A stretch of DNA of 64,000 nucleotides, taken from IMG/VR virus record IMGVR_UViG_3300035663_000008. One strand, written 5' to 3'. This DNA comes from an uncultured virus (IMG/VR IMGVR_UViG_3300035663_000008) (taxonomy: Duplodnaviria > Heunggongvirae > Uroviricota > Caudoviricetes). Positions 33,632-53,648 of this stretch are shown here, piece by piece (within the stretch, counting starts at the first letter, position 1; each line of letters begins with the position of its first letter). A model generated the notes under the pieces. That model was not told the origin of the DNA, made no database searches, and was given only the letters and a program-made list of their open reading frames with translations. The translations under genes were made by a program, and so were the position numbers.

Positions 33632-34069
33632 ATGGAACAAAACGAACGCTACATTGACCTTGAGACAACCGATCTGCTTGAGGTCACGCTACAGAAACCT
33701 GATGACTTCTTGAAAGTCCGTGAAACGCTGACCCGCATTGGCGTATCGTCCCGAGCCGAAAAGAAGTTGTGGCAGTCCTGCCATATCCTCCACAAGAAGG
33801 GCAAGTACTACATTGTCCACTTCAAGGAGATGTTTGCGCTTGATGATCTACCCACCTCCATCAACACCGAAGACACGGGACGGCGCAACACCATTGCGTG
33901 TCTGCTTGAGGAGTGGGGCTTGGTCAAGATCGTGGACAAAGCCAAGATCACGGACAAGGTTCCGCTGAACAAAATAAAGATCCTGCCCTTCAAAGAGAAG
34001 GGCGAGTGGGAATTGTGTCCTAAATACCATATAGGACGGTCAAAGAAGACCATGAAGCCCGAAGAGTGA
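33632..34069 (+). CDS. regA: Translational repressor RegA
   Basis: DDFLKVRETLTRIG, QSCHILHKKGKYYIVHFKEMF, KYHIG. Confidence 0.96.
   Translation: MEQNERYIDLETTDLLEVTLQKPDDFLKVRETLTRIGVSSRAEKKLWQSCHILHKKGKYYIVHFKEMFALDDLPTSINTEDTGRRNTIACLLEEWGLVKIVDKAKITDKVPLNKIKILPFKEKGEWELCPKYHIGRSKKTMKPEE
34020..34026 (+). promoter_or_regulatory. Possible late promoter CTAAATA ahead of the glycan locus
   Basis: In the 3' end of regA, 59 nt before the first glycosyltransferase; also encodes Pro-Lys-Tyr so may be incidental. Confidence 0.4.
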
Positions 34070-34085
34070 ACAACGGAGATTTATA

Positions 34086-34787
34086 ATGAACCTAGTGATC
34101 AAGTTCCCCACCCGCAATCGTCCCGACAAGTTCAAGGCTGTGTTTACGCGCTATCTTACCTTCCTCAGTGGACGGCATGATGTGCGTTTCATCGTCACGA
34201 TGGACGAAGACGATCCCACGATGAACAACCCAGAGATGCAGCAGTGGTTTGCCACTCGCGCACAGAACGCACAGATTGAGTGCTTCTACGGCAACTCCAA
34301 GAGCAAGATTGAGGCTTGCAACGCGAACCTAGAGGGCGTGGACGGCGATGTGCTGCTTCTTGCGTCCGATGACATGGTTCCCGTTCAGATGGGTTACGAT
34401 GACATCATTGCCAAGTGCTACGAGCAGGCTTTTCCTGACTACGATGGCGCAATCAAGTTCTGGGATGGACTACGCCCAAAGGAAGACCTGCTGATGACAC
34501 TCACTGTCATGGGCTTCCCGCTGTACAAGCAGTTTGGCTATATCTACAATCCTGAATACAAGTCCGTGTACTGCGACAACGAGCAGACACAGGTTTGCGC
34601 TGCGCTGAACAAACTGCGCCGATGCGACCTGTGCATTATTCAGCACCAGTGGAGCGGAGAGCCGTGGGACGAACTCCATGCAAGGAATGAGAACAAGGAA
34701 ATGTATGGTGTGGACGGTGAAACCTTCAAGCGGCGCGCCGCAAACAAGTTTGATATGGAGGTAATGTTCAATGCAACAACTCGCTAA
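34086..34787 (+). CDS. Glycosyltransferase (GT-A fold)
   Basis: IKFPTRNRP, MDEDD, LASDDM DxD-like motif, YCDNE. Confidence 0.75.
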   Translation: MNLVIKFPTRNRPDKFKAVFTRYLTFLSGRHDVRFIVTMDEDDPTMNNPEMQQWFATRAQNAQIECFYGNSKSKIEACNANLEGVDGDVLLLASDDMVPVQMGYDDIIAKCYEQAFPDYDGAIKFWDGLRPKEDLLMTLTVMGFPLYKQFGYIYNPEYKSVYCDNEQTQVCAALNKLRRCDLCIIQHQWSGEPWDELHARNENKEMYGVDGETFKRRAANKFDMEVMFNATTR

Positions 34788-35400
34788 AATAGACCACTAC
34801 TGGCAAGATCCGATGTTTGAGGAGGGATATTTCACCTATCCCAATCTTTATTTTGCTGCGGTTCGTCACTTTCCGACCAACAGTCATTTTGTGGAGGTTG
34901 GTTGTTGGAAGGGACGCTCTGCTGCATTCATGGCGGTAGAAATTCACAATTCAGGGAAGTCTATTCAGTTTGATTGTGTGGATACATGGAACGGAAGTGT
35001 CACAGAAGAGCCACATCAAAATGATTCGTGGGTGAAATCAGGAACTCTATACGAACGGTTCTTGTCAAACACCGACCGTGTAAAGCATATCATCACACCA
35101 AAGCGCGGAGATTCAGTTGAAGTCGCTAGCACATATGAAGATAATTCGTTGGATTTTGTTTTCATAGACGGCGATCATCGTTATGAGTGTGTAAAAGCAG
35201 ATATAGAAGCGTGGTTGCCAAAGATGAAGTCAGGAAGCATATTGGCTGGTCACGATTACGGATGGTGCGAAGATGTCCGTAGAGCAGTCCATGAAGTTTT
35301 GGGAGAAGGTACCGATTCATACACAGATCGTTATGGAATAGGTTACAAGTCATACGATGATCCTTGGGGCGAAGGCTGCTGGATCATAAACATTGATTGA
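34771..35400 (+). CDS. Class I SAM-dependent methyltransferase (Methyltransf_24-like), copy 1
   Basis: VEVGCWKGRS, VDTW, DFVFIDGDHRYE, AGHDY. Confidence 0.88.
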   Translation: MQQLAKIDHYWQDPMFEEGYFTYPNLYFAAVRHFPTNSHFVEVGCWKGRSAAFMAVEIHNSGKSIQFDCVDTWNGSVTEEPHQNDSWVKSGTLYERFLSNTDRVKHIITPKRGDSVEVASTYEDNSLDFVFIDGDHRYECVKADIEAWLPKMKSGSILAGHDYGWCEDVRRAVHEVLGEGTDSYTDRYGIGYKSYDDPWGEGCWIINID

Positions 35401-36064
35401 GGAAAATCATGCCAGTATCAGCAAGTAAAATAACGGAGACTATGTTCAATGTCACAGCAACCAATTAATCATTTTTGGCAAAACTCCATGTTTGAGGAAG
35501 GGTGGTTTACCTATCCTAATTTGTATTCCCATATGGTTGGTATATTTCCTTCCAATAGTCATTTTGTTGAGGTTGGTTCCTGGAAGGGACGATCTGCTGC
35601 ATTCATGGCAGTAGAGATTCATAATTCAGGAAAGAGTATTCGTTTTGATTGTGTTGATCCGTGGAATGATCTTGATCCACATCCATTAATTCAAAATGAT
35701 CCGTGGGTGCAGAGCGGAAAATTGTACGATAAGTTTTTGTTCAACATTGATAAAGTGAAACACATCATCACCGCAAAGCGCGGCGAGTCCATTTCTATAG
35801 CAAATGAATACAACGATAAATCACTAGATTTTGTCTTTATTGATGGTGATCACCGATACGAATGTGTCAAGGCAGACATTGAGGCTTGGCTACCAAAGGT
35901 CAAGCCTGGTGGTATTTTAGCGGGACACGATTATGGGTGGAATGATGTTACTAGGGCAGTACAAGAAGTATTAGGAACAAAAGTTAAATCAGATCCTTGG
36001 GGCGAAGGCTGCTGGATCACAAACATTGATTGAGGACAATTATGCCAGTACCAGCAAGTGAAAT
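35359..36064 (+). repeat. 73-nt direct repeat (35359-35431 / 35992-36064), 5 mismatches
   Basis: gatccttggggcgaaggctgctggatca...atgccagta.cagcaagt.aaat occurs twice. Confidence 0.9.
35449..36033 (+). CDS. Class I SAM-dependent methyltransferase, copy 2 (paralog of 34771)
   Basis: Shares KGRSAAFMAVEIHNSGKSI and SLDFVFIDGDHRYECVKADIEAWLPK with copy 1. Confidence 0.88.
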   Translation: MSQQPINHFWQNSMFEEGWFTYPNLYSHMVGIFPSNSHFVEVGSWKGRSAAFMAVEIHNSGKSIRFDCVDPWNDLDPHPLIQNDPWVQSGKLYDKFLFNIDKVKHIITAKRGESISIANEYNDKSLDFVFIDGDHRYECVKADIEAWLPKVKPGGILAGHDYGWNDVTRAVQEVLGTKVKSDPWGEGCWITNID

Positions 36065-36680
36065 CAAGTTCAGCATTCTGATTCTGTCCATCCCTTCCCG
36101 CTTTGAGTCGCTGAAGGCGGCGGTTAATCACCTACAGGAACAAGCCGATGCCACGGGGCAGGGCAAGTCTGTTGAGATTCTTGTGCTGCTTGACAACAAG
36201 TCCAAGAGCATTTCCGAGAAGCGCAATGACCTCCTGCAAATGGCACGGGGCAAGTACATCGCTTTCTTGGATGACGATGATGCGGTCAGCAAGGACTACA
36301 TGAGCGCGATCCTGAAGGCTATTGACGAGAACGATGTGGACTGTATCTCGTTCAATCAGTGGTGCAGTATCAACGGCGAACCGATGGATGTGGAGTTCGG
36401 CATCGGTAATCCTCACGGACAGTTGTGGCGTGACGAGGACGGATTCCTTGGCGACATCAAGCGTCCACCTTATCATATGTGCGTGTGGCGGCGAGATATC
36501 GCGGTGAGCGAGGCTTTCAATTCCGTGTATGGAGCCAACGGTCAGTCCACGGAAGACATTGACTGGCTCATGCGTCTGTATCCCAAGATTCAGACCGAGC
36601 ATCACATCCCTGATGCCCTGCATGGCTATATTTACAACTCAAAGACCACGGAATCGCTAGTTCCGCAGGATCAGCAGTGA
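36042..36680 (+). CDS. GT2-family glycosyltransferase
   Basis: FSILILSIPSR, KRNDLLQMARGKYIAFLDDDD, EDIDW. Confidence 0.85.
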   Translation: MPVPASEIKFSILILSIPSRFESLKAAVNHLQEQADATGQGKSVEILVLLDNKSKSISEKRNDLLQMARGKYIAFLDDDDAVSKDYMSAILKAIDENDVDCISFNQWCSINGEPMDVEFGIGNPHGQLWRDEDGFLGDIKRPPYHMCVWRRDIAVSEAFNSVYGANGQSTEDIDWLMRLYPKIQTEHHIPDALHGYIYNSKTTESLVPQDQQ

Positions 36681-37369
36681 AGGTAATCTCCTACAGCCTG
36701 TGGGGAGACAACCCCACATATACGGTCGGTGCCGTTCGCAACGCGGATCTGGCGGCGCAACTGTTCCCTGATTGGACTTGCGTGTTTTACTGCTTTCAGT
36801 CCGTTCCTGCCGAAATAATCGCGCAGTTAGAATCTCGTCCGAATGTGCTTGTGCGGCGGGTAGAGGGTGATTACAATACCGCAGACAGCCGTGGTATGTT
36901 CCACCGTTTCCTTCCCGCAGACGAAGAGGGCGTAGAGTGCATGATGAGCCGCGATACAGATTCCCGTCTGTCTGAGCGTGAGCGGCTGGCGGTGGACGCT
37001 TGGATTGCCAGTGGAGCGGATCTCCATGTGATGCGCGACCATCCGTATCACGGGGTTCCCATGCTTGGCGGTATGTGGGGCGTGAAGGGCGGCAAACTCA
37101 AGGGGATTGCCCGTGACATGGAAGAGTTTCAGCCGAGCAGCGACAAGGGACAGGACCAGTCGTTCCTGTGGGAATGGGTTTGGGACAAGGTAAAGGACGG
37201 CGAACTGGCGGTCTGCGTTCACGATCCTTTCTTTCAGAAGTCTCCATTCCCCGATGGCGCAAAGCGCGGAGAAGAAAATGGTGGCGTGTGGTTTGTCGGA
37301 CAGGTCTTTGATGAAAACGACAAATACAACAGCCAAAGTGATTTAGACATGGTGAAAGGACAACCGTAA
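36677..37369 (+). CDS. Putative glycosyltransferase (KVISYSLWG family)
   Basis: MFHRFLP, SRDTDSR, MRDHPYH, GGMWG, DQSFL. Confidence 0.65.
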   Translation: MKVISYSLWGDNPTYTVGAVRNADLAAQLFPDWTCVFYCFQSVPAEIIAQLESRPNVLVRRVEGDYNTADSRGMFHRFLPADEEGVECMMSRDTDSRLSERERLAVDAWIASGADLHVMRDHPYHGVPMLGGMWGVKGGKLKGIARDMEEFQPSSDKGQDQSFLWEWVWDKVKDGELAVCVHDPFFQKSPFPDGAKRGEENGGVWFVGQVFDENDKYNSQSDLDMVKGQP

Positions 37370-38091
37370 TGGATAGAATACTTTTTGTTCATCATCATTT
37401 GGGAATGGGAGATCACATCATGTGCAATGGTCTTGTCAGGTCTTTGCTCAATGATGGCAAAGTTTATACTGGTGTTTATGTCTTTGCAAAGGACAAAAAT
37501 GCTTCTAGAGTCTCCCGTATGTTTGATGATGATCCGAGGATACAAGTAGTCCCGATCCCATCATCTGAAAACGAAATTTCATATGTGAACGCGGTCATCA
37601 GCAAGTATGGAATAGTTGATTTCGTTCGTTGCGGATTTGGTGCCATAGACAACCTCATGTCTATGGGACTGATTTCTAACTTTGATGAAGCATTCTATAT
37701 CGGGGCAGGAATACCGTTTGATGCAAAATGGTCGCAGTTCAAGATTAGACGAGACTACAAAGAAGAACAGAGAGTTTTGAACAAACTGAACCCATCGGAA
37801 AAGCCCTTCATGTTTGTACATGATGATCCTTCTAGAGGTTTTGTCCTCAATCCACCAAATCCACACGGGCTTCAGATCATCAAGAACGATGTAACGGTAG
37901 ACCTATTTGACATGATTGGTGTGTTGGAGGCTGCATCTGAAATCCATTGCATGGAGAGTTCGATAAGCAATCTCATAGAGTTTTTGCCGAATGTGGTATG
38001 TCCTTTGTATATGCACCGAGGAATCCGAGTAGACGAAAATGGAAAGTCACAAAATGCTACCAGTAGAATGAAAAGGTGGACGATTGTATGA
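37369..38091 (+). CDS. Putative GT-B glycosyltransferase-like protein
   Basis: HHHLGMGDHIMCNGL start, ASEIHCMESS. Confidence 0.55.
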   Translation: MDRILFVHHHLGMGDHIMCNGLVRSLLNDGKVYTGVYVFAKDKNASRVSRMFDDDPRIQVVPIPSSENEISYVNAVISKYGIVDFVRCGFGAIDNLMSMGLISNFDEAFYIGAGIPFDAKWSQFKIRRDYKEEQRVLNKLNPSEKPFMFVHDDPSRGFVLNPPNPHGLQIIKNDVTVDLFDMIGVLEAASEIHCMESSISNLIEFLPNVVCPLYMHRGIRVDENGKSQNATSRMKRWTIV

Positions 38092-38906
38092 CGGTTTTCA
38101 AGAATCTGATCATCGGATCTACATCTCAACTGGCAAATTACTTTCCTCAAGAGTTCGTTCGTGTTTCTTCTCGTTCGGAACTAGCAAGCCATTGCAACGA
38201 GTCTTGGGATACGGTTTATGTGTGTTTTGGTGAAAATCGTACCTATCTTGCTGATTCGAAAGACTCTTCAGTCACGGACGAGTTTTATCGCATAAACCAT
38301 GATCTAACATTAAGTGTCGTGAATATGTTCAAGAACAGTTGCAGGAGAGTGGTGGTTTACTCCACAGCAGAACTGTGGAACGATTGCAATGGTGCTGTTG
38401 GAATTGATACTCCGTTTCAGTACAAGCCCAACCATTACATACAGTCAAAGTACAATATGACAAAGGAACTAAAAGACAAGAGCAGATACCCGAATGTCAG
38501 CATTGCTTATCCATTCAACTTTAATGGGGTATACAGAAAGGGCGACTTTCTGTTTGGTAAGGTTTTTGGTTCTATACTGAACAGAACTGAAATACAGTTG
38601 GGAGACACCTACTACTACAGGGATATAGTTCATCCTAAATGGGCTGCTGAAGAGAGCATGGTTGATAGAGTAGGTGTAGATTTCATCATTGGTTCTGGAA
38701 GACTTGTGTATGTAAATGATCTGATACGATGTTTGTATTCGTCTTTCGGTCTTCGATATGAAGATATGGTCACTGAAAGAATCGTCACTCCATCAATCTA
38801 TAGGAATCGCTTGTTTTATTCGGAAACAAAGGCAAAAAACAGTGATATCGAATCTCTACTGACATCTCTTGTTGCCGAACTGAAGGAGTTTTCTCATGCA
38901 AGTTGA
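38088..38906 (+). CDS. Divergent NAD-dependent epimerase/dehydratase (extended SDR)
   Basis: LIIGSTSQLA, YST, YIQSK (YxxxK), PFNF, RDIVH, IGSG. Confidence 0.7.
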   Translation: MTVFKNLIIGSTSQLANYFPQEFVRVSSRSELASHCNESWDTVYVCFGENRTYLADSKDSSVTDEFYRINHDLTLSVVNMFKNSCRRVVVYSTAELWNDCNGAVGIDTPFQYKPNHYIQSKYNMTKELKDKSRYPNVSIAYPFNFNGVYRKGDFLFGKVFGSILNRTEIQLGDTYYYRDIVHPKWAAEESMVDRVGVDFIIGSGRLVYVNDLIRCLYSSFGLRYEDMVTERIVTPSIYRNRLFYSETKAKNSDIESLLTSLVAELKEFSHAS

Positions 38907-39267
38907 AGTATCTTTGGGTGAAGTAGTGGACAAGTATACGATCCTTCTGATAAAGGAGCGCATGATAACTGATCATAGTAAACTATTGAATGTCAAGAAA
39001 GAGCGTCAATACCTTGAAGATGTTCTCAAGCATGAAAATTTTTCTGACACGGAGATGCTTGACCGATTGACTCTGGTGAACGAAAAGTTGTGGCACATAG
39101 AGGATCGCATTAGAATCAAGGAATCATTGAAACTGTTCGATGATGAATTTATTGCTTTGGCTCGTTCCGTGTACCGCACCAATGACGAAAGGGCAAGGAT
39201 TAAAAGACAGATAAACAGTGCGTATGGGTCTAACTTCGTAGAAGAGAAGCAGTACACCGATTATTGA
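38896..39267 (+). CDS. Conserved hypothetical protein of glycan loci (DUF6165-like)
   Basis: VSLGEVVDKYTIL, VNEKLWHIEDRIR, LARSVYRTNDERA, EEKQY. Confidence 0.75.
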   Translation: MQVEVSLGEVVDKYTILLIKERMITDHSKLLNVKKERQYLEDVLKHENFSDTEMLDRLTLVNEKLWHIEDRIRIKESLKLFDDEFIALARSVYRTNDERARIKRQINSAYGSNFVEEKQYTDY

Positions 39268-39295
39268 AATAGTCAAGCGTCCAAACAGAGGCGAC

Positions 39296-40039
39296 ATGAA
39301 TACCAAAATTAATATACTCATTCCTATGGCGGGTCGCGGAGAAAGATTTTCTTCTGTTGGTTATGATCTTCCGAAACCACTAATAGAAATCAATGGGCGA
39401 CCTATGATAGAATGGGCATTGCGTAGTTTAGATGTGGATTTTCAACTACACAATTTCATTTTTGTGGTACGAGACTATCAAAACGATGAAATCAATGATC
39501 GTCTTTCATCTGTTTTGAACACTCTAGTGCCGAACAATACAACCATAAAGATTGATTATGTCACAGAAGGACCAGCGTGTACTTGTTTGCTTGTTCGTGA
39601 CATCATCAATGTAGCAACTCCTCTTATGATCGGAAACTGTGATCAAATTATGAGATGGAATGGATCATACTTTGTAAGCAGTTGCCTTAATTCTCCATAT
39701 GATGGCGTGGTTGTTACTTATGATGAAAGTACTCCAAAGAACAGTTACGCAAAATTAAATTCTCGTGGAGATGTGATACGAATTGAGGAAAAAAATGTAA
39801 TAAGCAATGTTTCATTGAATGGCATACATTTTTGGAAACACGGTTTTGATTTTGTAAGTTCTGCGGATTCTATGATAAAAAACAATGAGCGATACAACAA
39901 TGAATTTTATGTTGGTCCAACATATAACCATATGATTAGTGCGGGAAAGAGGATTGGCATTTTTCATATTCCGCGAGAATGTCATAATCCAGTTGGAGTG
40001 CCTAGCGATCTTGGTGTTTTTTTGGAGAGAAGTAAATGA
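39296..40039 (+). CDS. Sugar-phosphate nucleotidyltransferase-like protein (BcbE/GlmU N-terminal type)
   Basis: LIPMAGRGERF..GYDLPKPLI, TEGPACT, NCDQ, IEEK, NNEFYVGPTYN. Confidence 0.85.
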   Translation: MNTKINILIPMAGRGERFSSVGYDLPKPLIEINGRPMIEWALRSLDVDFQLHNFIFVVRDYQNDEINDRLSSVLNTLVPNNTTIKIDYVTEGPACTCLLVRDIINVATPLMIGNCDQIMRWNGSYFVSSCLNSPYDGVVVTYDESTPKNSYAKLNSRGDVIRIEEKNVISNVSLNGIHFWKHGFDFVSSADSMIKNNERYNNEFYVGPTYNHMISAGKRIGIFHIPRECHNPVGVPSDLGVFLERSK

Positions 40040-40365
40040 AGAAGCACAAACTTTCTGATATGTTTCGTGGATGGTTCGTTGGTGATTTTGAGCCTTCCGT
40101 GCTGCAAACAAAAGAGTTTGAAGTTGGTCTACTCACCCACAAGAAGGGTGAGAAGTGGGAAGAACACTATCACAAGGTCGCTACGGAAATCAATGTCTTG
40201 GTTGAAGGAAGCATGACGGTGAACGGCATACATATAGAGGTTGGAGACATCTTTATCATTGAACCAAACGAATCCTCCGCTCCCATATTCTTGGAGGATT
40301 GCAAAGTGCTGTGTGTAAAAACACCTTCTGTGATTGGAGATAAATATGCAACTATTCGTGAATGA
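40036..40365 (+). CDS. Small cupin-fold protein
   Basis: GWFVGDFEP, HYHKVATE, GDIFIIEPNE, KTPS..GDKY. Confidence 0.8.
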   Translation: MKKHKLSDMFRGWFVGDFEPSVLQTKEFEVGLLTHKKGEKWEEHYHKVATEINVLVEGSMTVNGIHIEVGDIFIIEPNESSAPIFLEDCKVLCVKTPSVIGDKYATIRE

Positions 40366-41539
40366 AAACGAGATTGATTCGGACAAGTATTTTGTTGTTA
40401 CTTACAAATTGGAGTCGGACAAGAACCTCCGTGATGCTGCGTGGAACATTGCAATCGGGCAGAGCGTAGGCAATCCAAATGTCAGAAATCGTTGGGAGAC
40501 AGAGGATTTGTTCAAGAATCACTCTTGTCTGATACTCGCTGACGAGACTGAACTACAGAACAAGACATCAGGAGAAGTCAAGATAGCGTTCCCTGTGATC
40601 AATACTGATTGGGAAACAGATGGAATCAGCCATCTGCTCTGCCAGATCATGGGCGGTCATGTTGATATTGACTTGGTGAGGAAGTGCCGCATAGTCAAGT
40701 TGGATCTTCCGCAAAGTGTCACCAAGCACTTTGCTGGACCAAAGTTTGGCATCAGCGGTATGAGGAAGTTCACGGGTCAATACGAAAAGCCACTGCTTGG
40801 CGCGATCATCAAGCCCAAGATTGGTATCACTCCCGAAACCCTGTTGGACATGGTTAAGGAACTCGTTGATGGCGGCGTTGATTTCATCAAGGAAGACGAG
40901 ATCATGTCCAATCCGTCTTTCTGTCCACTAGACAAGCGCGTGGACATGATTTCAAACTACCTGCGCTCACAGTCTCGGAATGTAGTATTCTGTCATACCA
41001 TCAACTGCGATCCGCACATTCTCGCGGATCGTGTCCGTAGAATCCATTCGCTTGGCGGAAACGGTGTACACATCAATGTGTGGAGCGGATACGGTGCGTA
41101 CAACAGCATCAGGAAACTAGACCTTCCGATCTACCTGCATTTCCAAAGCAGCGGTGCAAAGGTTGTGACAAGCGTAAACAATCAGTTCAGCATCAGTTGG
41201 TCTGTGATTTGTCAGTTGGCTACTCTCATGGGTGTAGACACCATTCAAACAGGAATGGTCGGTGGCTACAGCAATGACGATACAGATGAGATACTTGAAT
41301 GCATTCGCGTTCTTCGTGCAGGAAATACGGTTCCTGCTTTGAGTTGCGGTCTTCACCCTGGTCTTGTTGACAAGATCACTTCACTGGTTGGCAACGATTA
41401 CCTTGGAAATGCTGGTGGTGCTATTCACGGACACCCAAGCGGAACCCTTGCTGGTGCCAAGGCAATGCGTCAGGCTGTTAATAATGTATACGGAACAGAG
41501 TACACACAAGCAATTGAAAGATGGGGAAAAATTTTGTGA
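40346..41539 (+). CDS. RuBisCO-like protein (form IV RLP)
   Basis: GPKFGISG, GAIIKPKIG, GGVDFIKEDE, PALSCGLHPG, AGGAIHGHPSGTLAGAKAMRQA; lacks the loop-6 Lys and HR motif of true RuBisCO. Confidence 0.93.
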   Translation: MQLFVNENEIDSDKYFVVTYKLESDKNLRDAAWNIAIGQSVGNPNVRNRWETEDLFKNHSCLILADETELQNKTSGEVKIAFPVINTDWETDGISHLLCQIMGGHVDIDLVRKCRIVKLDLPQSVTKHFAGPKFGISGMRKFTGQYEKPLLGAIIKPKIGITPETLLDMVKELVDGGVDFIKEDEIMSNPSFCPLDKRVDMISNYLRSQSRNVVFCHTINCDPHILADRVRRIHSLGGNGVHINVWSGYGAYNSIRKLDLPIYLHFQSSGAKVVTSVNNQFSISWSVICQLATLMGVDTIQTGMVGGYSNDDTDEILECIRVLRAGNTVPALSCGLHPGLVDKITSLVGNDYLGNAGGAIHGHPSGTLAGAKAMRQAVNNVYGTEYTQAIERWGKIL

Positions 41540-42465
41540 AGGTCTTGTACATCAATAAGGGTTGGGATACAGACTATCAGGCATCATCCGTGATGCATGG
41601 ATTGAGAACTCTTCTTGGAAAAGACCTAGTAGATTTTCCAAAAATGGAAAATATGTACAAGTCTTCGTTGCCTTCTACCCATCACCAAGAATTGCAATTA
41701 CGGTCAACCATGTATGGTCGTGGCTTTGGATATCCTTTTACACTTGATGATGATGATATAGACAGAACCGAAATAGTAAAAAAAATCAAAGACAGATATT
41801 TTGATGTTATCTTATTCGGTCCTTGCAACAACTCATTGTTGATTGGTGATTGGAACCTTAGCGTATTTAATGTAGCCGCAGAGTGCGGAAACAGAGTGTG
41901 TTTGATTGATGGGGATGATTTAGATGCAGGCACTCACGAAATAATTCATCACCATCTGTTACAGGTAGTTTCTAAAACTAATGGAGTGTATTTCAAACGA
42001 GAACTACAATCTTGTACAACAAAACATTTAGCACCAATATCGTTTTCGTTTCCTGTAGAAAAAGCCACGCTCACTCAACCGACCAAGAGCAATGTGTTTG
42101 CTATGGAATCCTCTATAAATGTCGGATACAAATTTGAAAAAGAGGATGACTATTATTCAGAATACAGGAAATCTTATTTTGGAAAAACAGGCAAGCGAGG
42201 TGGATGGGATTGTCTTCGTCACTACGAAATACTATTCAATAGAGCAATTCCATATTTTGAAAACCTAGATCAACTACCCACAAATACCATGTTTAGATTT
42301 CCTAGACAGTTGGTCAAAGACGGAATGCGTTGTCTCAATTCTGATGGGACGGTAGATTCTAGTTGTTATTTTGATGTAGAAGCCCAACTGTTCCGATACA
42401 GCATGGAAAACCTTACTACGATTTCAATGGCTCGGTATATGATTAATAGGATTTTTGGAGAATAA
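41536..42465 (+). CDS. Putative glycosyltransferase (GT-B/CgeB-like), paralog A
   Basis: DYQASSVMHGL, IDGDD, YFKREL, SYFGKTGKRGGWDCLRHYEI; GTGA overlap with RLP stop. Confidence 0.6.
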   Translation: MKVLYINKGWDTDYQASSVMHGLRTLLGKDLVDFPKMENMYKSSLPSTHHQELQLRSTMYGRGFGYPFTLDDDDIDRTEIVKKIKDRYFDVILFGPCNNSLLIGDWNLSVFNVAAECGNRVCLIDGDDLDAGTHEIIHHHLLQVVSKTNGVYFKRELQSCTTKHLAPISFSFPVEKATLTQPTKSNVFAMESSINVGYKFEKEDDYYSEYRKSYFGKTGKRGGWDCLRHYEILFNRAIPYFENLDQLPTNTMFRFPRQLVKDGMRCLNSDGTVDSSCYFDVEAQLFRYSMENLTTISMARYMINRIFGE

Positions 42466-42466
42466 T

Positions 42467-43465
42467 ATGCTGAAAATATTGTTTGCTACGGCAATAGGCG
42501 ATGCTAAATCATATGATTATTTAACAGATGGTATTCTTCATGGACTGAAAACCAGACCAGATCAGTTTGAAGTGTATGAGTGTTTTGCCATGAAGCACTT
42601 GTATAAAAAGTATCCAAACGAAGATGTTCATGCTTTGTTTGGTAGAAAAAATCTTGATGGAGAACCAAACGAATTGGTTTTGACCGACTGCATTAAAATG
42701 ATCTCTGACAAATTTTTTGATGTGATCATTTTTGACTGGAGAACATCTAGTCCTTTTTGGCATAGAAACGGGCATTGTCCGTATTTTACCGAAACTATGG
42801 CTATTAGGAATGCCGCTTTCGCTTCCTATCCCGCAGACAAAATTGTATTTTTAGATAGCAGTGATGATAACATCGGAAAATATGATATGTTTGTGGAAGA
42901 GTTTCTAGGAAGATCAACATACTTCAAGAGAGAACTCTACATTGATGATCCATATTTTCATCCAATAGACATACCATTTGCTGCTGAAAAGGGAAGTCCT
43001 CTTGTCCTCTCCGATTGCAAAGAAAAGTTCCTAGCCCGTGTCATACCCGAGAAAAAAGAGACATATGTGTTCAAAGATGAGTCATCGTACTACGGTGATT
43101 ATGCAAAATCATATTTTGGTGCTACATGGAAGAAAATAGGATGGGGATGCTATCGTCATTCTGAGATAGTTTTTTCTTCTTGCGTTCCAGTGTTTCCAGA
43201 TATAAAGGAATGCCCCAGAAGAACTCTAACATTCTTTCCGAAGCAGATGTTTGAAGAAGTGCTTGATCGTGGGATATTGAACCAAGGTACTTTTAGGATA
43301 CAAAAATACTGGGATCAATATGCATACGAAGATTTTGCAATCAATGAATCCAATGTTGATGTGTCGTGGTATGATGATATACTCACACGGATATACCATC
43401 ATGCCCACAAACATCTAACAACCACTGCGATGGCAGACTATGTTTTGTCAAAACTGAACACATAA
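42467..43465 (+). CDS. Putative glycosyltransferase (GT-B/CgeB-like), paralog B
   Basis: DYLTDGILHGL, LDSSD, YFKREL, SYFGATWKKIGWGCYRHSEI. Confidence 0.6.
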   Translation: MLKILFATAIGDAKSYDYLTDGILHGLKTRPDQFEVYECFAMKHLYKKYPNEDVHALFGRKNLDGEPNELVLTDCIKMISDKFFDVIIFDWRTSSPFWHRNGHCPYFTETMAIRNAAFASYPADKIVFLDSSDDNIGKYDMFVEEFLGRSTYFKRELYIDDPYFHPIDIPFAAEKGSPLVLSDCKEKFLARVIPEKKETYVFKDESSYYGDYAKSYFGATWKKIGWGCYRHSEIVFSSCVPVFPDIKECPRRTLTFFPKQMFEEVLDRGILNQGTFRIQKYWDQYAYEDFAINESNVDVSWYDDILTRIYHHAHKHLTTTAMADYVLSKLNT

Positions 43466-43479
43466 ACGGACAGAATATT

Positions 43480-44064
43480 ATGAAAATAGTACAGATAGGT
43501 GCGTGTAGGGGGAATGATGATCTGACACCGATCATCAGTAGTAATGAAATTGAAAAACTCATAATAGTAGAACCTATGTGTGTTCACAATGAAGCATTGG
43601 AACTATGCTACGCTTCTATCAAAAACAAGACTATAGAAAATGTAGCGATATCCTGCACAAACGATGCACACATTGATTTTTACTATCATCCAGATGACGG
43701 TCCTGGATACGAAGTATCATCAACCGATATCAATCACATCATAAAACACAGACATCTACAACCAGATAGAATAATCAAACTACGAGTTCCATCAATCGGA
43801 ATAAATGATCTGCTGAAAAAGCACGGCATGAACGAATTGGACATACTGTTTATAGACGCTGAAGGACTAGACGACCAACTAATCCGATCAATAGATTTTT
43901 CCGTATTCAAGATACACAACATATTCTACGAAAACCTACACCTGAAATCAGATGTGAATCGGTATTTGCGAGACTTGGGATATGTTGTCTATGAAAACAT
44001 CGGTTCTAACGGGTGGATGAATTTGGCGGTTATGAACCCAGATCAGATAAACTCACTGTCATAA
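43480..44064 (+). CDS. FkbM-family methyltransferase
   Basis: VQIGACRG, IVEP, ENVAI, LFIDAEGLD, IFYE. Confidence 0.82.
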   Translation: MKIVQIGACRGNDDLTPIISSNEIEKLIIVEPMCVHNEALELCYASIKNKTIENVAISCTNDAHIDFYYHPDDGPGYEVSSTDINHIIKHRHLQPDRIIKLRVPSIGINDLLKKHGMNELDILFIDAEGLDDQLIRSIDFSVFKIHNIFYENLHLKSDVNRYLRDLGYVVYENIGSNGWMNLAVMNPDQINSLS

Positions 44065-44073
44065 AGGACTATC

Positions 44074-44994
44074 ATGGAAACCAAGGACTTTCTATTCTTT
44101 AACTATTCGTGGGTTCCTAACTCAACATTCTACTTTGAGTCCTTTGCAAAGAAAGGACACTCTGTTGACATAGTTACGGAACATACCCTACATTCATTTG
44201 TGCCAAAGCATAAGTACAAGAATGTGGTTCTGTATCTGCATGAGCCGTGGAGTCTTCCAATAACAGACCATCTCATAAACACATATTTTAGCGATGCTGT
44301 GTTGATTCAGCATGACGATACCGATTTTGAGGATGTACAGTATTGGAGTACTAGGGTTCCTGATTTGGTCATGCAGAGAGAATATACTGACAATACAAAA
44401 AATCCCCGTGGCTCTGCTATGGGTGCTTTTCATTTTCCGATCAATTCTTGGCACGATCCTGCCATAACCGAGAAGCCCTATGACCTATGTTTCTTGGCAA
44501 ACATGACACACCCAAGACGAGTGCTGTTTTCTAAAAAGATGATGGAGTTGATGAACGGCAGACTGAATCACTTGGTTTGGAAAGTGAACATAGAGCCTCA
44601 TGTGAACACCCCTTCACAGTTTTATAACAAGAATGCTTTTGTTGAACAGAAGGAGGACACAAAGACCATCGTGAACAAGACCAAAATTGGACTCAACGAT
44701 TTTGGAAACTCATACGAGCAGTGGAGAACATGGGAATACGCCAGTGCAGGAACTGCCATACTCATGCCAAAGATGAAGACCAAATGTGTGTCCGAAGGAT
44801 TCATGCCCTTTAATGAGTACATGATATTCCGTGATGATTACTCTGATATGGAAGAGAAGATTCTTTTCCTCTTGGAGAATAATCGGTATTTAGAGTACGG
44901 TCGCATGGCTAAAGAAGCATATGACACCCGACACAATCCCGAAAAGTGTTTTGAGTTTTACTACAATCAAGTAATGCAGTACGCTAAACAGTAA
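44074..44994 (+). CDS. Putative glycosyltransferase (GT-B/CgeB-like)
   Basis: KPYDLCFLAN, KIGLN..G, RTWEYASAG, EEKILFLL. Confidence 0.65.
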   Translation: METKDFLFFNYSWVPNSTFYFESFAKKGHSVDIVTEHTLHSFVPKHKYKNVVLYLHEPWSLPITDHLINTYFSDAVLIQHDDTDFEDVQYWSTRVPDLVMQREYTDNTKNPRGSAMGAFHFPINSWHDPAITEKPYDLCFLANMTHPRRVLFSKKMMELMNGRLNHLVWKVNIEPHVNTPSQFYNKNAFVEQKEDTKTIVNKTKIGLNDFGNSYEQWRTWEYASAGTAILMPKMKTKCVSEGFMPFNEYMIFRDDYSDMEEKILFLLENNRYLEYGRMAKEAYDTRHNPEKCFEFYYNQVMQYAKQ

Positions 44995-45020
44995 TCTTGT
45001 ATTGCTTGGAGATTTATACC

Positions 45021-45860
45021 ATGAGTAATTCAAAAAACACTATACTGATCCGAGGATCCCTAGCATACGAAAAGTATCCCAATTCCTTTGTCCATGATAC
45101 AATTCCTACCATCAGAGAGTGGTTTACTGGTCAATTGGTTGTCAGCACTTGGAAAGGACAAGAACAGCATCTGCGTGGATTGGAAGGCATGATTGATGAT
45201 GTTGTGTTAAGCGATGATCCTGGTTTTGGATGCATACAGTCTTACGATAGGCAACTGATCTCGTATAAAGCAGGAATGGAGCGTTGTTCGGGAGATTTAG
45301 TGTTTGTTGCCAGAGCAGACTTCTGTTTGAAGAAGAATCCCTTTCACCTGTGGGAAAAGGTTCCTGCAAGACGGGGAAACGATATGAAGGTTTTTGAAAA
45401 CCGAATAGTCATAGGAAACATGATGACTATTTCCCCCAATAAAGCAGAACCCAAAATTTCTAACTTCAGACCATCTGACTGGATACAGATGGGAACAAAA
45501 TCTGACCTGCTGAAGTGGTCAGGAGTACTACAGAAATCGCATGAATTACATTCTGCTGCAACAGGTCTTACTGATTTGTCTACAACGGAATATAAGAGTG
45601 AGGCATACGGAAGCGAGCAACTGTGGTTGATCAGTCTTCTGAACAAATATGTGAGTGAAGACATAACACTCACCAATTACTGGTCCTGTGATCCTTATCT
45701 TGTGTGGTGCGCCTTGATTAACAACTTTGCAGTATTTAATACAAGGTCCACCATCGGTGCGTACAATTTGAATTGGGATTTTCAGCCAGAGTTCCATCCT
45801 TGGTACATGACGGAACAAGAGTATTTTCAGATTAACGAACAACTGAACGGATCAAGATGA
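45021..45860 (+). CDS. WavE-like LPS/glycan synthesis protein
   Basis: ILIRG, LVVSTW, SDDPG, RQLIS..AG, RAD, SDWIQMGTKSDL, EQLW. Confidence 0.7.
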   Translation: MSNSKNTILIRGSLAYEKYPNSFVHDTIPTIREWFTGQLVVSTWKGQEQHLRGLEGMIDDVVLSDDPGFGCIQSYDRQLISYKAGMERCSGDLVFVARADFCLKKNPFHLWEKVPARRGNDMKVFENRIVIGNMMTISPNKAEPKISNFRPSDWIQMGTKSDLLKWSGVLQKSHELHSAATGLTDLSTTEYKSEAYGSEQLWLISLLNKYVSEDITLTNYWSCDPYLVWCALINNFAVFNTRSTIGAYNLNWDFQPEFHPWYMTEQEYFQINEQLNGSR

Positions 45861-46318
45861 AATACATTTCTCATAGAGGAAATCTAACTGGAAGAAATCC
45901 CGATAGAGAAAACAGTCCGACTTACATAGAGGAAGCAATTTCTGCTGGATATGATGTTGAGATTGATGTGTGGTACATTGATGGAGAGTTTTATCTGGGT
46001 CACGATGAACCACGGTATGGGGTGTGTTTGGACTGGTTGTTGAAACATCCACTGTGGTGTCATGCAAAAAATTTGGATGCATTGGAACGCATGACTTCTT
46101 CTGGAGTGCATTGTTTTTGGCACGAAAATGACCGCTTTACCCTAACATCAAAATCCATACCTTGGTGTTTCCCCAACAATTGGTCTTCCAAAGGAATCAC
46201 CGTTGTTTTTGATGCCCCGTGTTCCGAAATTTTAAGTAAGAGTGTATTGGGTATATGCACAGATGATCCTGTTTCGTGGAAGAAGTTTAACGACACAAAA
46301 AACAATTTGGAAATTTGA
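45857..46318 (+). CDS. Short glycerophosphodiester phosphodiesterase/PLC-like protein
   Basis: ISHRGN, ENSP, GYDVEIDVW, LGHD, WCHAKN, FWHEND, GICTD. Confidence 0.75.
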   Translation: MKYISHRGNLTGRNPDRENSPTYIEEAISAGYDVEIDVWYIDGEFYLGHDEPRYGVCLDWLLKHPLWCHAKNLDALERMTSSGVHCFWHENDRFTLTSKSIPWCFPNNWSSKGITVVFDAPCSEILSKSVLGICTDDPVSWKKFNDTKNNLEI

Positions 46319-46320
46319 TT

Positions 46321-47412
46321 ATGTACGACTATCTGATTGTTGGTTCTGGTCTGTTTGGCGCGATATTCGCACGGCAGATGACCGATGCGGGTGCGCGGTG
46401 TCTTGTCGTGGACAAGCGCAGCCACATTGGAGGAAACTGCTACACCCGAGATGTGGGCGGAATTCATGTCCACGAATACGGTCCACACATTTTCCACACA
46501 AGCAGTGACCGCGTGTGGGAATACATGAACAGGTGGACGCGGTTCAATCACTTTGTGTATCGCCCCCGTGCGATACACGGCGATAACCTGTACTCATTCC
46601 CCATCAATATGTTTACCCTGTATCAGTTGTGGGGCGTGAAGACTCCGCATGAGGCACAGGAAAAATTGGCTCAAGTGCGGATTGCGATACCTTCTCCGTC
46701 CAACCTAGAGGAGTGGGTGCTGTCTCAAGTGGGCGAAGAGATTTACGAGAAGTTCGTGAAGGGCTACACCACGAAGCAGTGGAACCGCGATCCCAAGGAT
46801 CTGCCTGCATCCATCATAAAGCGGCTTCCAATTCGGCTCACCTACGATGACAACTACTTTGAAGACAAATATCAGGGCATCCCTGTTGACGGATACACCC
46901 CAATCTTTGAAAAACTCTTGAGCGGTATCCCCCTTGAGACAGGAGTTGATTTTCTGAAAGATCGTGAGCGTCTGGAAGGCATGGCTCGAAAGGTTGTTTA
47001 CACGGGAGCAATAGACGAATTCTTTGGTTCCGATCTTGGCAGTCTTGAGTGGAGAAGTCTGCGGTTTGAACACCAGACGCTACAGATTCCCGACTATCAG
47101 GGAGTCGCAGCAGTAAACTATACTGATGCGAAAATTCCGTATACCCGTGTGGTGGAACACAAGCACTTCACTTTTGGGAAACAGGATCATACTGTTGTCA
47201 CCCGCGAGTATCCGCAGAATTGGGATAGCACAAAAGAGAAGTTCTATCCTGTTGTAGACGATAGAAATAACGAACTGTATATTCAGTACAAGAACAGAAT
47301 AGACACTGACAGATACATATTCGGTGGTCGTTTGGCAGACTACAAGTATTACGATATGCACCAAGTGGTGGGGTCTGCCCTGACACGCAGCGAAAAGGAA
47401 ATTAAGCGATGA
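46321..47412 (+). CDS. glf: UDP-galactopyranose mutase
   Basis: IVGSGLFG, HIGGNCY, YGPHIFHT, YTTKQW, YQGIP, GRLADYKYYDMHQ. Confidence 0.95.
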   Translation: MYDYLIVGSGLFGAIFARQMTDAGARCLVVDKRSHIGGNCYTRDVGGIHVHEYGPHIFHTSSDRVWEYMNRWTRFNHFVYRPRAIHGDNLYSFPINMFTLYQLWGVKTPHEAQEKLAQVRIAIPSPSNLEEWVLSQVGEEIYEKFVKGYTTKQWNRDPKDLPASIIKRLPIRLTYDDNYFEDKYQGIPVDGYTPIFEKLLSGIPLETGVDFLKDRERLEGMARKVVYTGAIDEFFGSDLGSLEWRSLRFEHQTLQIPDYQGVAAVNYTDAKIPYTRVVEHKHFTFGKQDHTVVTREYPQNWDSTKEKFYPVVDDRNNELYIQYKNRIDTDRYIFGGRLADYKYYDMHQVVGSALTRSEKEIKR

Positions 47413-48350
47413 AAGCACTAGTAACAGGTGGAGCGGGTTTCATTGGATCAAATCTCGTGGACAGATTGATTGCGGATGGTCACGAAGTCACAGTGATCGA
47501 CAATGAATCTTCTGATGCACATGATCAGTTCTATTGGAATCCTGCTGCCAAGAACTACAAGTACGACATCAATGATTACACAATGGTTCGTAAACTGTAT
47601 GAAGGTGTGGACACCGTTTTCCACCTTGCTGCGGAAGCCCGTATTCAGCCGTGCATTGTTGATCCGCTAAAGGCTGTGGAAGCCAATATGCTTGGCACAG
47701 CCAGCGTGTTGCAGTGCGCTCGGGTCTGTGGTGTGAAGCGTGTGATCTATTCTTCCACCTCGTCTGCATACGGACTGAAGAATACTCCACCGCTTGTTGA
47801 AACCATGCCCAACGATTGCCTGAATCCGTATTCCGTGTCCAAGACAGGCGGTGAAGAGTTGTGCAAGATGTACTCTAAACTGTACGGCTTGGAGACAATC
47901 ATCTTTCGCTACTTCAATGTCTACGGAGAGCGTCAGCCACTGCGAGGGCAGTACGCTCCAGTGATTGGCATCTTCCTGCGTCAACGAGCCGCAGGAGAAC
48001 CCATGACGATTGTGGGTGATGGAGAACAGCGGCGGGACTTCACCTATGTTGGTGATGTAGTGGAAGCCAACATCAAGGCATCATATTTTGTTGCTCCTGA
48101 ATATGATATAATCGACAATGGTTCCTGTAAGACTTATCGGGGTTGGAATTGGGGTCAGATTTACAACATTGGCACAGGAACCAACCATTCCGTGAATCAG
48201 ATTGCTGCACTCATGGGTGGTGAGACTGTAAATATTCCTCCCCGCGCAGGAGAATCCCGAATTACTCTAGCAAATGCAACCAAGGCAAAAAATCAACTTG
48301 GGTGGACTCCGAAAGTTCGTCTTGAAGACTGGATTACCGAGCATAAATAA
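47409..48350 (+). CDS. NAD-dependent nucleotide-sugar epimerase (GalE-like)
   Basis: TGGAGFIGS, HLAA, YSVSK, RYFNVYG, GDGEQRRDFTYVGDV. Confidence 0.92.
   Translation: MKALVTGGAGFIGSNLVDRLIADGHEVTVIDNESSDAHDQFYWNPAAKNYKYDINDYTMVRKLYEGVDTVFHLAAEARIQPCIVDPLKAVEANMLGTASVLQCARVCGVKRVIYSSTSSAYGLKNTPPLVETMPNDCLNPYSVSKTGGEELCKMYSKLYGLETIIFRYFNVYGERQPLRGQYAPVIGIFLRQRAAGEPMTIVGDGEQRRDFTYVGDVVEANIKASYFVAPEYDIIDNGSCKTYRGWNWGQIYNIGTGTNHSVNQIAALMGGETVNIPPRAGESRITLANATKAKNQLGWTPKVRLEDWITEHK
48343..48349 (+). promoter_or_regulatory. Possible late promoter (C)ATAAATA
   Basis: 23 nt before the GT2-TPR gene. Confidence 0.45.
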
Positions 48351-48372
48351 CCGTACAAGGAGATCGTGAACA

Positions 48373-49569: not shown

Positions 49570-49571
49570 CA

Positions 49572-49703
49572 ATGGCAAAGAATTCACGGAGCGGAAAAGG
49601 CACAGGCGGATTCGCAAGCGCAAAGACCCGCCGCACCCGCAAGGCAGCAGTACTACGCAAGAGCGCAAACCGCGCTCGTAACGCAGCAGCAAAGGCACGG
49701 TAA
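49572..49703 (+). CDS. 43-aa highly basic peptide, absent from ORF track
   Basis: MAKNSRSGKGTGGFASAKTRRTRKAAVLRKSANRARNAAAKAR; fills the gap; TAATG coupling to next gene. Confidence 0.65.
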   Translation: MAKNSRSGKGTGGFASAKTRRTRKAAVLRKSANRARNAAAKAR

Positions 49704-53020: not shown

Positions 53021-53042
53021 TTATCATAAAGGATATCAGCAA

Positions 53043-53627: not shown

Positions 53628-53648
53628 AATTAAGTGGAATAATAGTAT

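Follow-up and report, generated by a model that had tools for sequence, protein, structure and literature searches.

A RuBisCO-like protein linked to a nucleotidyltransferase, a cupin and a GDPD-like protein in a candidate biosynthetic cassette of aquatic phages

The DNA described here is a stretch of 64,000 nucleotides (nt), called the window in its full length, from an uncultured virus of the Caudoviricetes (IMG/VR record IMGVR_UViG_3300035663_000008). A run of overlapping genes on its plus strand encodes a nucleotidyltransferase (NTase), a small cupin and a RuBisCO-like protein (RLP) (Table 1). The open reading frames (ORFs) of the NTase and the cupin start with ATG. The ORF of the RLP can be read from a TTG, and an ATG further in gives a shorter form that homologues match from residue 1. 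Successive genes between 39296 and 42465 overlap by 4, 20 and 19 nt. The first-pass annotation of this DNA had described the three overlapping genes correctly, as well as the overlap of the RLP stop codon with the start of the next gene. Its naming of that next gene as a glycosyltransferase, in contrast, is a lead only; the gene and its downstream paralogue have no Pfam or NCBIfam match. Comparison with a 94%-identical relative (L003) gave ratios of non-synonymous to synonymous substitution (dN/dS) of 0.056 (RLP), 0.078 (NTase) and 0.088 (cupin), and all three genes are under purifying selection. A fourth conserved partner, which was overlooked in the first reading of the window, is encoded 4.3 kb 3' of the RLP and resembles glycerophosphodiester phosphodiesterases (GDPDs).

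Table 1. Positions of the cassette genes and of other features in the window
Feature	Position	Strand	Length	Basis
NTase, sugar-1-phosphate NTase fold, signature LIPMAGRGERF	39296-40039	+	247 aa (amino acids)	Pfam, profile
Cupin, small single-domain, metal motif H44-x-H46-x4-E51	40036-40365	+	109 aa	model, fold search
RLP, probably of the phage/Beckwithbacteria 'form IV-like' clade, from ATG	40346-41539	+	397 aa	Pfam, tree
RLP reading frame from TTG	40334-41539	+	401 aa	ORF
RLP codon 105	40658-40660	+		
RLP codon 268	41147-41149	+		
RLP codon 301	41246-41248	+		
Miniature GDPD-like phosphodiesterase, fourth conserved cassette member	45857-46318	+	153 aa	motifs, profile, model
Two paralogous genes after the RLP, possibly GT-B-like transferases	41521-43465	+	314 and 336 aa	structure neighbours
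First gene of this pair	41521-42465	+		ORF
Variable glycan island, host of the cassette	34086-49569	+	about 15 kb	Pfam
RegA, island border	33632-34069			PHROGs
dUTPase-like gene, island border	50383-50955			PHROGs
DUF6165 gene	38896-39267		123 aa	
Adjacent restriction endonuclease II and DNA methyltransferase genes	52842-54815			PHROGs
Tail-tube paralogues	15418-16029; 21823-22350			PHROGs

The RLP is assigned to the RuBisCO large-subunit superfamily. Residues 135-382 match Pfam RuBisCO_large (PF00016) with an E-value of 2.8e-39 (135.6 bits against a cut-off of 30.1), and residues 4-124 are spanned by RuBisCO_large_N (PF02788) at 19.9 bits, slightly below the cut-off of 20.7. The protein matches 99 RuBisCO or RLP chains of the PDB at E<=0.001. 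None of the NCBIfam equivalog models is reached, and all scores lie far under the cut-offs: 190.6 bits against 497 for rubisco_III, 168.7 against 409 for the MtnW model NF007095, 135.3 against 513.6 for TIGR03332, and 156.4 against 700 for the OiaX model NF042437. An exhaustive search of representative sequences returned 1537 proteins at E<=0.001, among which the closest group reaches identities as low as about 37% (E<1e-52). This group is followed by proteins of 32-33% identity with E-values of about 1e-49 or weaker. A broader protein search found 3038 proteins at E<=0.001, and each of the best 120 shares 70% identity or more with the window RLP. Homologues in metagenome-assembled genomes (MAGs) of Beckwithbacteria and Patescibacteria are 50-51% identical, and the Beckwithbacteria locus L085 stands at 50%.

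The phylogenetic position of the RLP was analyzed with 105 full-length representatives labelled by NCBIfam. A FastTree phylogeny of 105 rows contained the window RLP, 103 of these representatives (P0172 and P0210 were excluded) and the RLP part of the fusion protein P0126. There is no named DeepYkr reference among the rows, and the distance to the DeepYkr clade is therefore not directly given by this tree. The window RLP, 20 representatives and the RLP part of P0126 form a clade of 22 rows that is separated from the 83 other rows with a branch support of 99. This clade is distinct from the rows passing the MtnW or form III/large-subunit cut-offs and from the OiaX-like rows, which form a clade of their own (support 96). 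An OiaX-type identity is rejected by the score and the separate clade, and a carboxylating RuBisCO of forms I-III by the rubisco_III score and an incomplete catalytic set. An MtnW identity is rejected as well. Grouping with MtnW beside mtn genes was the contrary case named in the first-pass annotation, and what is found is a separate clade, a score under the cut-off and no IF-2B/MtnA-type gene in any of four related RLP-bearing phage records searched whole (three complete and one 62% complete).

Jaffe, Castelle, Dupont and Banfield (2019, Mol Biol Evol 36:435; PMC6389311) reported about 80 non-redundant phage 'form IV-like' sequences, some of them from Myoviridae and on contigs from varied environments. 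These sequences group with Beckwithbacteria, and the main text leaves their function unclear. The window RLP is similar to this group in that it lies on a myovirus contig, has a Beckwithbacteria relative, branches deeply and retains the key residues in part. It probably represents this divergent phage/Beckwithbacteria clade, because the window is T4-like, homologues occur in Beckwithbacteria and Patescibacteria MAGs, and the branch with a support of 99 lies deep and outside the other RLPs; the identity of the clade is deduced from these shared features. Unassigned RuBisCO groups in ocean metagenomes were also described in the Global Ocean Sampling (GOS) paper of 2007; they may represent the same clade, to which Tabita reportedly gave the name 'IV-GOS'.

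Domain fusions of other kinds were encountered among the RuBisCO homologues. P0193 from the representative search (583 aa) carries a TIR_2 domain fused to a complete RLP with 28% identity to the window RLP, so that a signalling domain of the defence type is unexpectedly combined with the RuBisCO fold. In another clade, IF-2B domains are fused to RuBisCO homologues (P0157, P0178, P0277 and P0278). IF-2B is the family of ribose-1,5-bisphosphate or 5-methylthioribose-1-phosphate isomerases, and these fusions fit the pairing of the adenosine monophosphate (AMP) pathway.

The active site of the RLP was mapped in a MAFFT alignment of 100 clade rows and eight labelled reference rows, including rows that pass the NCBIfam rubisco_III cut-off, and in a phmmer alignment to PDB 8dht. 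Residues are named after the spinach RuBisCO numbering and the carboxylase catalytic set (E60 to G404), given here in brackets. K156 (K175), K158 (K177) and the Mg-carbamate triad of K182 (K201), D184 (D203) and E185 (E204) are invariant in the 100 clade rows. The P1 phosphate cup is also kept, with S333 (S379), G335 (G381) and G357 (G403) invariant and G358 (G404) present in 96 of the rows. Across a clade with identities down to about 32-40%, the triad, K175, K177 and the P1 cup remain invariant. Most of the P2 phosphate site is lost. Nine residues needed by carboxylases are replaced. Three of these replacements are invariant in the clade: G38 for E60, Q267 for H294 (Gln in all 100 rows) and Y308 for K334. 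Another three are found in 99 of the 100 rows, namely N43 for T65, P44 for W66 and G104 for N123. R295 corresponds to S268 in the window and to Lys in 64% of the 22 representative rows, and H327 to Q301 in the window and to His in 86% of these rows. H298 is likewise replaced. New residues that are invariant throughout the clade are Q267, Y308, H242, N244, D107 and Q39, and new invariant polar residues line the site.

K334, H294 and N123 have established roles in carboxylases. Carboxylation is excluded because these three residues are lost. The retained metal-carbamate centre, general-base lysine and P1 cup suggest that the RLP enolises a substrate carrying a single phosphate, and the protein looks catalytically active. 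The short strings on which the first-pass annotation had relied are all present in the translation: GQSVGNPNVR (38-47), KPK (156-158), DFIKEDE (179-185), YLHFQ (263-267), IQTG (300-303), GMVGGYS (303-309), SCG (333-335) and GGAIHGHP (357-364). The alignment agrees with the retention of KPK, the carbamylation/Mg motif and the C-terminal phosphate-binding segments, and with the loss of the Arg295 equivalent, His327, the loop-6 Lys and the Asn of the N-domain GN. However, the His of YLHFQ, which had been taken for the equivalent of His294, is H265 and aligns with His292 in both alignments; the position of His294 is occupied by Gln267. The site occurs in two covarying flavours, H105/S268/Q301 in 40 rows including the window and Q105/K268/H301 in 33 rows. 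They resemble a His/Gln swap between the N-domain loop and barrel strand 6 and are uncorrelated with the presence of the cupin.

The NTase is assigned to the sugar-1-phosphate type of fold rather than to IspD. It scores 27.1 bits against Pfam NTP_transferase (PF00483; cut-off 21.2) and 27.6 against IspD (cut-off 27). The best PDB match of the single sequence is 4evw (9.1e-14). A family profile of 42 sequences (A3) matches this uncharacterised pyrophosphorylase at 6.3e-34, followed by HddC-like, ManC, RmlA and GlmU chains at about 1e-9 to 1e-6. G13, G15, R17 and K27 are invariant in the 42 sequences, in keeping with an N-terminal G-x-G-x-R loop. The product of the second gene has a cupin fold, as established by its model and a fold search. 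Pfam Cupin_2 (PF07883) gives 20.2 bits, below its cut-off of 27.2, and no NCBIfam model is matched except a weak ChrR one. The AlphaFold2 (AF2) model has a pLDDT of 95.2, and Foldseek returned 226 matches at E<=0.001, of which those listed are all cupins. H44 and E51 are invariant in the alignment of the family (A2), and H46 is at least 90% conserved. The protein resembles generic monocupins, including the archaeal phosphomannose isomerases 7zvm and 7zvy, KdgF and dimethylsulfoniopropionate (DMSP) lyases; the profile matches 7zvm at E 6.3e-4. The two identities proposed from the sequence are thus upheld, for the NTase by a score over the Pfam cut-off and for the cupin by model and fold search. 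A prediction of the RLP-NTase complex from alignments A4 and A3 had a score of 0.01, which weighs neither for nor against binding.

The fourth partner has no Pfam match even at E 10. Its family contains H-R-G, E-N, E-x-D and H-D motifs that are invariant in 44 sequences, and the profile A1 matches the GDPD 7e0v at E 1.2e-4 over only 53 residues spanning these motifs. The AF2 model (pLDDT 96.9) is a compact barrel. The top Foldseek matches are GDPDs (1v8e at 4.5e-4), and the listed GDPD chains have template-modelling (TM) scores of 0.39-0.64 by query. Compared with GDPDs, the protein lacks about 100 residues. Homologues amount to 105 proteins in 69 of 80 related viral loci and are often multi-copy. 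The conservation and the multiple copies suggest that the GDPD-like protein acts on the product of the cassette or on its precursor.

Conserved linkage connects these four families. A scan of viral contigs confirmed 180 relatives of the RLP, and linkage was counted in the best 80 of the 180, among which L001 is identical to the window. De novo clustering of the 1604 ORFs from these 80 loci places the RLP in all 80 loci, the NTase in 76 and there at most five genes from the RLP, the GDPD-like protein in 69 and the cupin in 54. The next families are Methyltransf_24-like proteins (30 loci), FkbM-like proteins (29), SDR proteins (29) and a family of 242 aa named c7 (18). With the window proteins as tblastn queries, the counts are 76 loci for the NTase, 68 for the GDPD-like protein and 54 for the cupin. 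The NTase is missed in four loci by either method, and the four are not identical. Three of the four NTase-less loci in the clustering have the RLP within two genes of a contig end, and L040 is the only locus without an NTase in the fetched flanks whose RLP is not at a contig edge. Dereplication at 75% RLP identity leaves 21 lineages. The NTase lies at most five genes from the RLP in 21 of 21 lineages; the GDPD-like protein is present in 20 of 21 and the cupin in 17 of 21. The dominant gene order is NTase, cupin and RLP, so the trio seen in the window is conserved across viral loci. The RLP gene is followed by the GDPD-like gene in several loci.

Among the viral loci, the c7 family occurs only in those that lack the cupin (18 of 26 against none of the 54 loci with a cupin). 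It lies directly 3' of the RLP in L013, L017-L020, L022, L023, L028, L029, L062, L063, L065, L067-L069, L071, L073 and L079, and further members are found at L088:9986-10828 and L089:7116-7874. No match to c7 was found in Pfam, in PDB profiles or among named Atlas entries, and it has no similarity to the WavE-like protein of the window. This family may replace the cupin. Other neighbours that recur over the RLP loci are sugar methyltransferases, SDR epimerases/dehydratases, GT1, GT8, GT25, GT61 and WavE proteins. Methyltransferases and glycosyltransferases co-vary with the cassette. Some loci contain radical-SAM genes, and near the RLP an APH-family kinase is present in 4 of the 80 loci and a HAD-type phosphatase in 5.

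The linkage extends beyond viral contigs. Nine MAG loci with an RLP were found in a genome collection, and seven of them have an NTase match beside the RLP, in two cases at an RLP identity of only 38-39%. In a MAG of the Verrucomicrobiae, a 2.28-Mb chromosome carries the genes in the order RLP, NTase and cupin as an island next to a transposase. In a Planctomycetales MAG, the cassette lies among GT1, GT2 and membrane GT-C (PMT_2) genes. Furthermore, some of the proteins are fused to each other. P0126 (667 aa) is an RLP-NTase fusion, the RLP part of which is 50% identical to the window RLP in BLASTP. A search for longer proteins found two RLP-NTase-cupin fusions, P0275 (813 aa) and P0276 (817 aa). 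In BLASTP with the three window proteins, residues 1-392 correspond to the RLP (56% identity), residues 398-634 to the NTase (31-33%) and residues 712-814 to the cupin (44-55%). It is unlikely that the fusions are gene-calling artefacts, because there are two independent triple fusions and one double fusion. Three predicted activities in one polypeptide are the strongest evidence here that the proteins would serve one shared pathway. The coupling proposed in the first-pass annotation is thus supported by the conserved order, the recurrence in MAGs down to 38% identity and the fusions.

The source of the window is a T4-like myovirus, and PHROGs matches are spread over its whole length. They include the tail fibre, head-tail connectors, terminase, sheath, tube, T4-type portal, prohead protease, scaffold, major head protein, UvsX, UvsY, helicases, primase-helicase, gp43 polymerase, clamp and clamp loader. 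RegA, a late sigma factor, a gp46/47-like nuclease and dCMP-deaminase-like, thymidylate-synthase-like and dUTPase-like proteins are also matched. The RLP is thus phage-encoded, as had been claimed. The major head protein has its best match, at merely 55%, in Synechococcus phages. psbA is absent from all four related records, and a cyanobacterial host is therefore not indicated. No match to the DNA of 34000-50000 or to the RLP protein was found among GenBank phages, a result of little weight because the record of the window itself was possibly excluded. Two further observations concern the window outside the island. Adjacent genes in the replication region match the PHROG 'restriction endonuclease II' (2.8e-31) and a DNA methyltransferase (3.4e-80). 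There are also two tail-tube (phrog_45) paralogues, the second of which is located after the major head protein gene.

The glycan island that carries the cassette is surrounded by replication genes. Pfam identifies in it two Methyltransf_24 genes, GT2, a DUF6165 gene, FkbM, Glyco_trans_1_2, WavE, UDP-galactopyranose mutase (GLF), an SDR epimerase/dehydratase and a GT2-TPR gene. Most of the genes outside the cassette recur in 1-9 of the 80 RLP loci each, and the SDR gene in 22 (tblastn). Hidden Markov models of the neighbour clusters, searched against the island genes, gave nothing beyond the expected methyltransferase and WavE matches. The two paralogous genes after the RLP (cluster 115) are kept in only 3 of the 80 loci. 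Atlas structure neighbours of the gene or genes directly 3' of the RLP include Glyco_trans_1_2 and RXYLT1_C clusters with TM scores of 0.68-0.78, which offers a lead that the first gene of the pair may encode a glycosyltransferase. The DUF6165 gene lies directly 5' of the NTase and is present in 5 of the 80 RLP loci.

The exact stretch is present in 19 lake-water or freshwater DNA runs, each with at least half of the sampled words; 7 of the 19 are possibly the source sample. A metatranscriptome library contains a 497-nt contig over 41011-41507 with three differences, a weak hint at transcription of the RLP region, as DNA can occur in such libraries. In the RNA run X20, parts of the island are without cover, and these gaps prove nothing because only contigs are available. 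A contig from the lake metagenome run X8 joins position 41534 to 45857 with 20 other letters in between, the shorter side being just 27 letters long. This junction weakly suggests that some strains have an island without the 4.3-kb transferase block, where the GDPD-like gene comes immediately after the RLP gene. It agrees with the order of RLP and GDPD-like genes in several loci.

With a probability of roughly 0.6, the NTase, the cupin, the RLP and the GDPD-like protein make up a mobile biosynthetic cassette for a nucleotide-activated unusual sugar or sugar-phosphate unit. We infer the chemical steps, their order and the target glycan as follows. The pathway would start from a host sugar phosphate and end with an activated unit for the transferases of the glycan island. 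In the RLP, the carbamyl-Lys/Mg2+ centre and Lys175 would enolise a keto-sugar anchored in the P1 cup through a single phosphate, resulting in isomerisation, epimerisation or a carbonyl shift without carboxylation. The cupin may catalyze a second metal-dependent isomerisation, and the NTase would couple the phosphate to a nucleoside monophosphate. The miniature GDPD-like proteins may make or break a phosphodiester that installs or trims the unit. Two orders can be envisaged. In one, the RLP and the cupin would remodel a host keto-sugar phosphate before the NTase acts last. In the other, the NTase would act first on a common sugar-1-phosphate, and the RLP and the cupin would then work on a nucleoside diphosphate (NDP)-linked keto-sugar that is supplied by the SDR protein (29 of the 80 loci) or the host, with the nucleotide phosphate held in the P1 cup.

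Several points weigh against this proposal. The 80 loci include many close relatives, and raw counts overstate their independence. The cupin is absent from 26 of the 80 loci and hence is not obligatory. Several of the 'cellular' MAG contigs may be mis-binned phage DNA. The cupin and the NTase are too generic to name a substrate or reaction, and the reaction associated with the GDPD-like fold is hydrolysis rather than transfer. RmlA-type NTases usually need an anomeric phosphate, which speaks against the order with the NTase last, and APH-type kinases, GHMP kinases and PGM/PMM mutases are each absent from the four related phage records. The route to an anomeric phosphate would therefore have to be supplied by the host, or the step order of the scheme is wrong.

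Known systems share parts of this logic. The bifunctional type II phosphomannose isomerase/GDP-mannose pyrophosphorylase combines an NTase domain with a cupin domain. The cassette is similar in its sugar-1-phosphate NTase fold and small metal cupin, the profile of which touches the isomerase 7zvm; it differs in its RuBisCO-fold partner, and the window proteins miss the cut-offs of those families. The pathway to GDP-D-glycero-alpha-D-manno-heptose uses an isomerase, an anomeric kinase, a phosphatase and an NTase. The step from a keto-sugar phosphate isomerase to an NTase would be common to both, and the NTase profile matches HddC-like chains at about 1e-9. However, the phage cassettes are without the kinase and the phosphatase, which are scarce near the phage RLPs, and the GDP-heptose logic is therefore not self-contained here. 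MtnW, the 2,3-diketo-5-methylthiopentyl-1-phosphate enolase, and OiaX, an RLP of apiose catabolism, have the same fold, Mg-carbamate centre and monophosphate-type site, whereas the window RLP lies far under their cut-offs and in a separate clade. In the 5'-methylthioadenosine (MTA)-isoprenoid shunt of R. rubrum and R. palustris (RPA2169/RPA2170), a DeepYkr RLP is a 1,3-isomerase and a cupin is the 1-methylthioxylulose-5-phosphate methylsulfurylase, according to the text of PMC5893883. As in the window, the RLP and the small cupin of the shunt are encoded side by side, and there the pair acts consecutively on a monophosphorylated pentulose. The shunt is a salvage route that needs MtnP and MtnA and releases methanethiol and 1-deoxy-D-xylulose 5-phosphate. 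In contrast, the phage loci have no detected IF-2B/MtnA, a lost His294, an NTase as the constant partner and a context of glycan synthesis.

The shunt is the precedent for a rival explanation in terms of methionine-salvage-type salvage or detoxification. The RLP would isomerise a 5-methylthio- or 5-deoxy-pentulose-1-phosphate derived from S-adenosylmethionine by-products, the cupin would process the product as in the shunt, and the NTase would be an add-on. The characterised RLP-cupin pair (PMC5893883), a P2 phosphate site that is degraded as in RLPs taking monophosphates, and the radical-SAM genes of some loci fit this explanation. So does the APH-family kinase near the cassette in 4 of the 80 loci, which has the fold of MtnK. 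Nevertheless, salvage is quite improbable. The clade is apart from MtnW and MtnW-like rows with a support of 99, and the MtnW score is far below the cut-off. His294, which is kept in MtnW and OiaX-like reference rows, is Gln in the window clade, and IF-2B/MtnA is absent from the four related records. What constantly accompanies the RLP, sometimes in a fusion, is the NTase, and glycan genes make up the neighbourhood. The nine replaced residues would also be accounted for if the RLP were a scaffold or regulator without catalytic activity, or a residual carboxylase. This is hardly credible beside an invariant Mg-carbamate triad, K175, K177 and P1 cup, a dN/dS of 0.056 and new invariant polar residues lining the site; a residual carboxylase is further contradicted by the loss of K334, H294 and N123.

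Other explanations keep the enzymes and change their purpose. T4-like phages glycosylate their own DNA. The same enzymology might place its product on phage DNA or virion proteins instead of a host envelope glycan, and the position of the island among replication genes and the dCMP-deaminase-like, thymidylate-synthase-like and dUTPase-like genes of the window would suit such a target. The lipopolysaccharide- and capsule-type genes WavE, GT25, GLF and FkbM in the island and related loci point elsewhere, as do the bacterial MAG cassettes beside PMT_2 and GT1/GT2 genes, where DNA modification is unlikely; we regard a DNA or virion target as unlikely overall. The cassette could also be a module of host takeover, in which the GDPD-like protein cleaves a phosphodiester and the RLP and the cupin degrade the freed sugar phosphate of an envelope precursor. 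Such a module would build nothing and would instead serve to shut off glycan synthesis in the host or to prevent superinfection. In its favour, GDPD enzymes hydrolyse their substrates, APH or GHMP kinases and PGM/PMM mutases are missing from the four related records, and to our knowledge the characterised RLPs all act in salvage or catabolism. The RLP of the MTA shunt is one of these (PMC5893883). Degradation is nonetheless distinctly unlikely, since an NTase fused to the RLP suits activation, methyltransferases and glycosyltransferases co-vary with the cassette, and MAGs also carry the cassette, in one case on a bacterial chromosome.

The locus had been put forward as an undescribed system. 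Phage RLPs of this kind are already in print with no assigned function (PMC6389311), and the pairing of an RLP with a cupin has a precedent (PMC5893883). Beyond that precedent, the literature searched yielded no publication in which an RLP is tied to an NTase, a cupin or the synthesis of glycans. The words nucleotidyl, glycosyl, cupin, polysaccharide and neighbor do not occur in the main text of Jaffe et al. The linkage of the clade to NTase, cupin and GDPD-like genes and the fusion proteins are likewise absent from that main text.

A bolder joint reading, doubtful as a whole, can be added to the proposed biosynthetic cassette. The RLP clade may be a biosynthetic nucleotide-sugar enzyme with a chemistry new for the RuBisCO fold. 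It may enolise an NDP-linked keto-sugar while the P1 cup holds the nucleotide phosphate; alternatively, the enediolate of the RLP may attack a carbon electrophile and give a branched or chain-extended sugar. On this reading, the multi-copy miniature GDPD-like proteins would attach the unit via a phosphodiester and constitute a novel class of phospho-sugar transferases, and aquatic phages would spread the cassette across bacterial phyla.

If the biosynthetic cassette is real, the RuBisCO fold would gain a biosynthetic role, and the clade of RLPs joined to NTases in glycan loci would imply an activated sugar that is as yet undefined. The triple-fusion proteins offer a single-polypeptide entry point for its biochemistry. 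Because the RLP clade is abundant, with 3038 proteins, 180 viral contigs and a presence in lake-water runs, the product may be a common, unrecognised feature of surface remodelling by aquatic phages.

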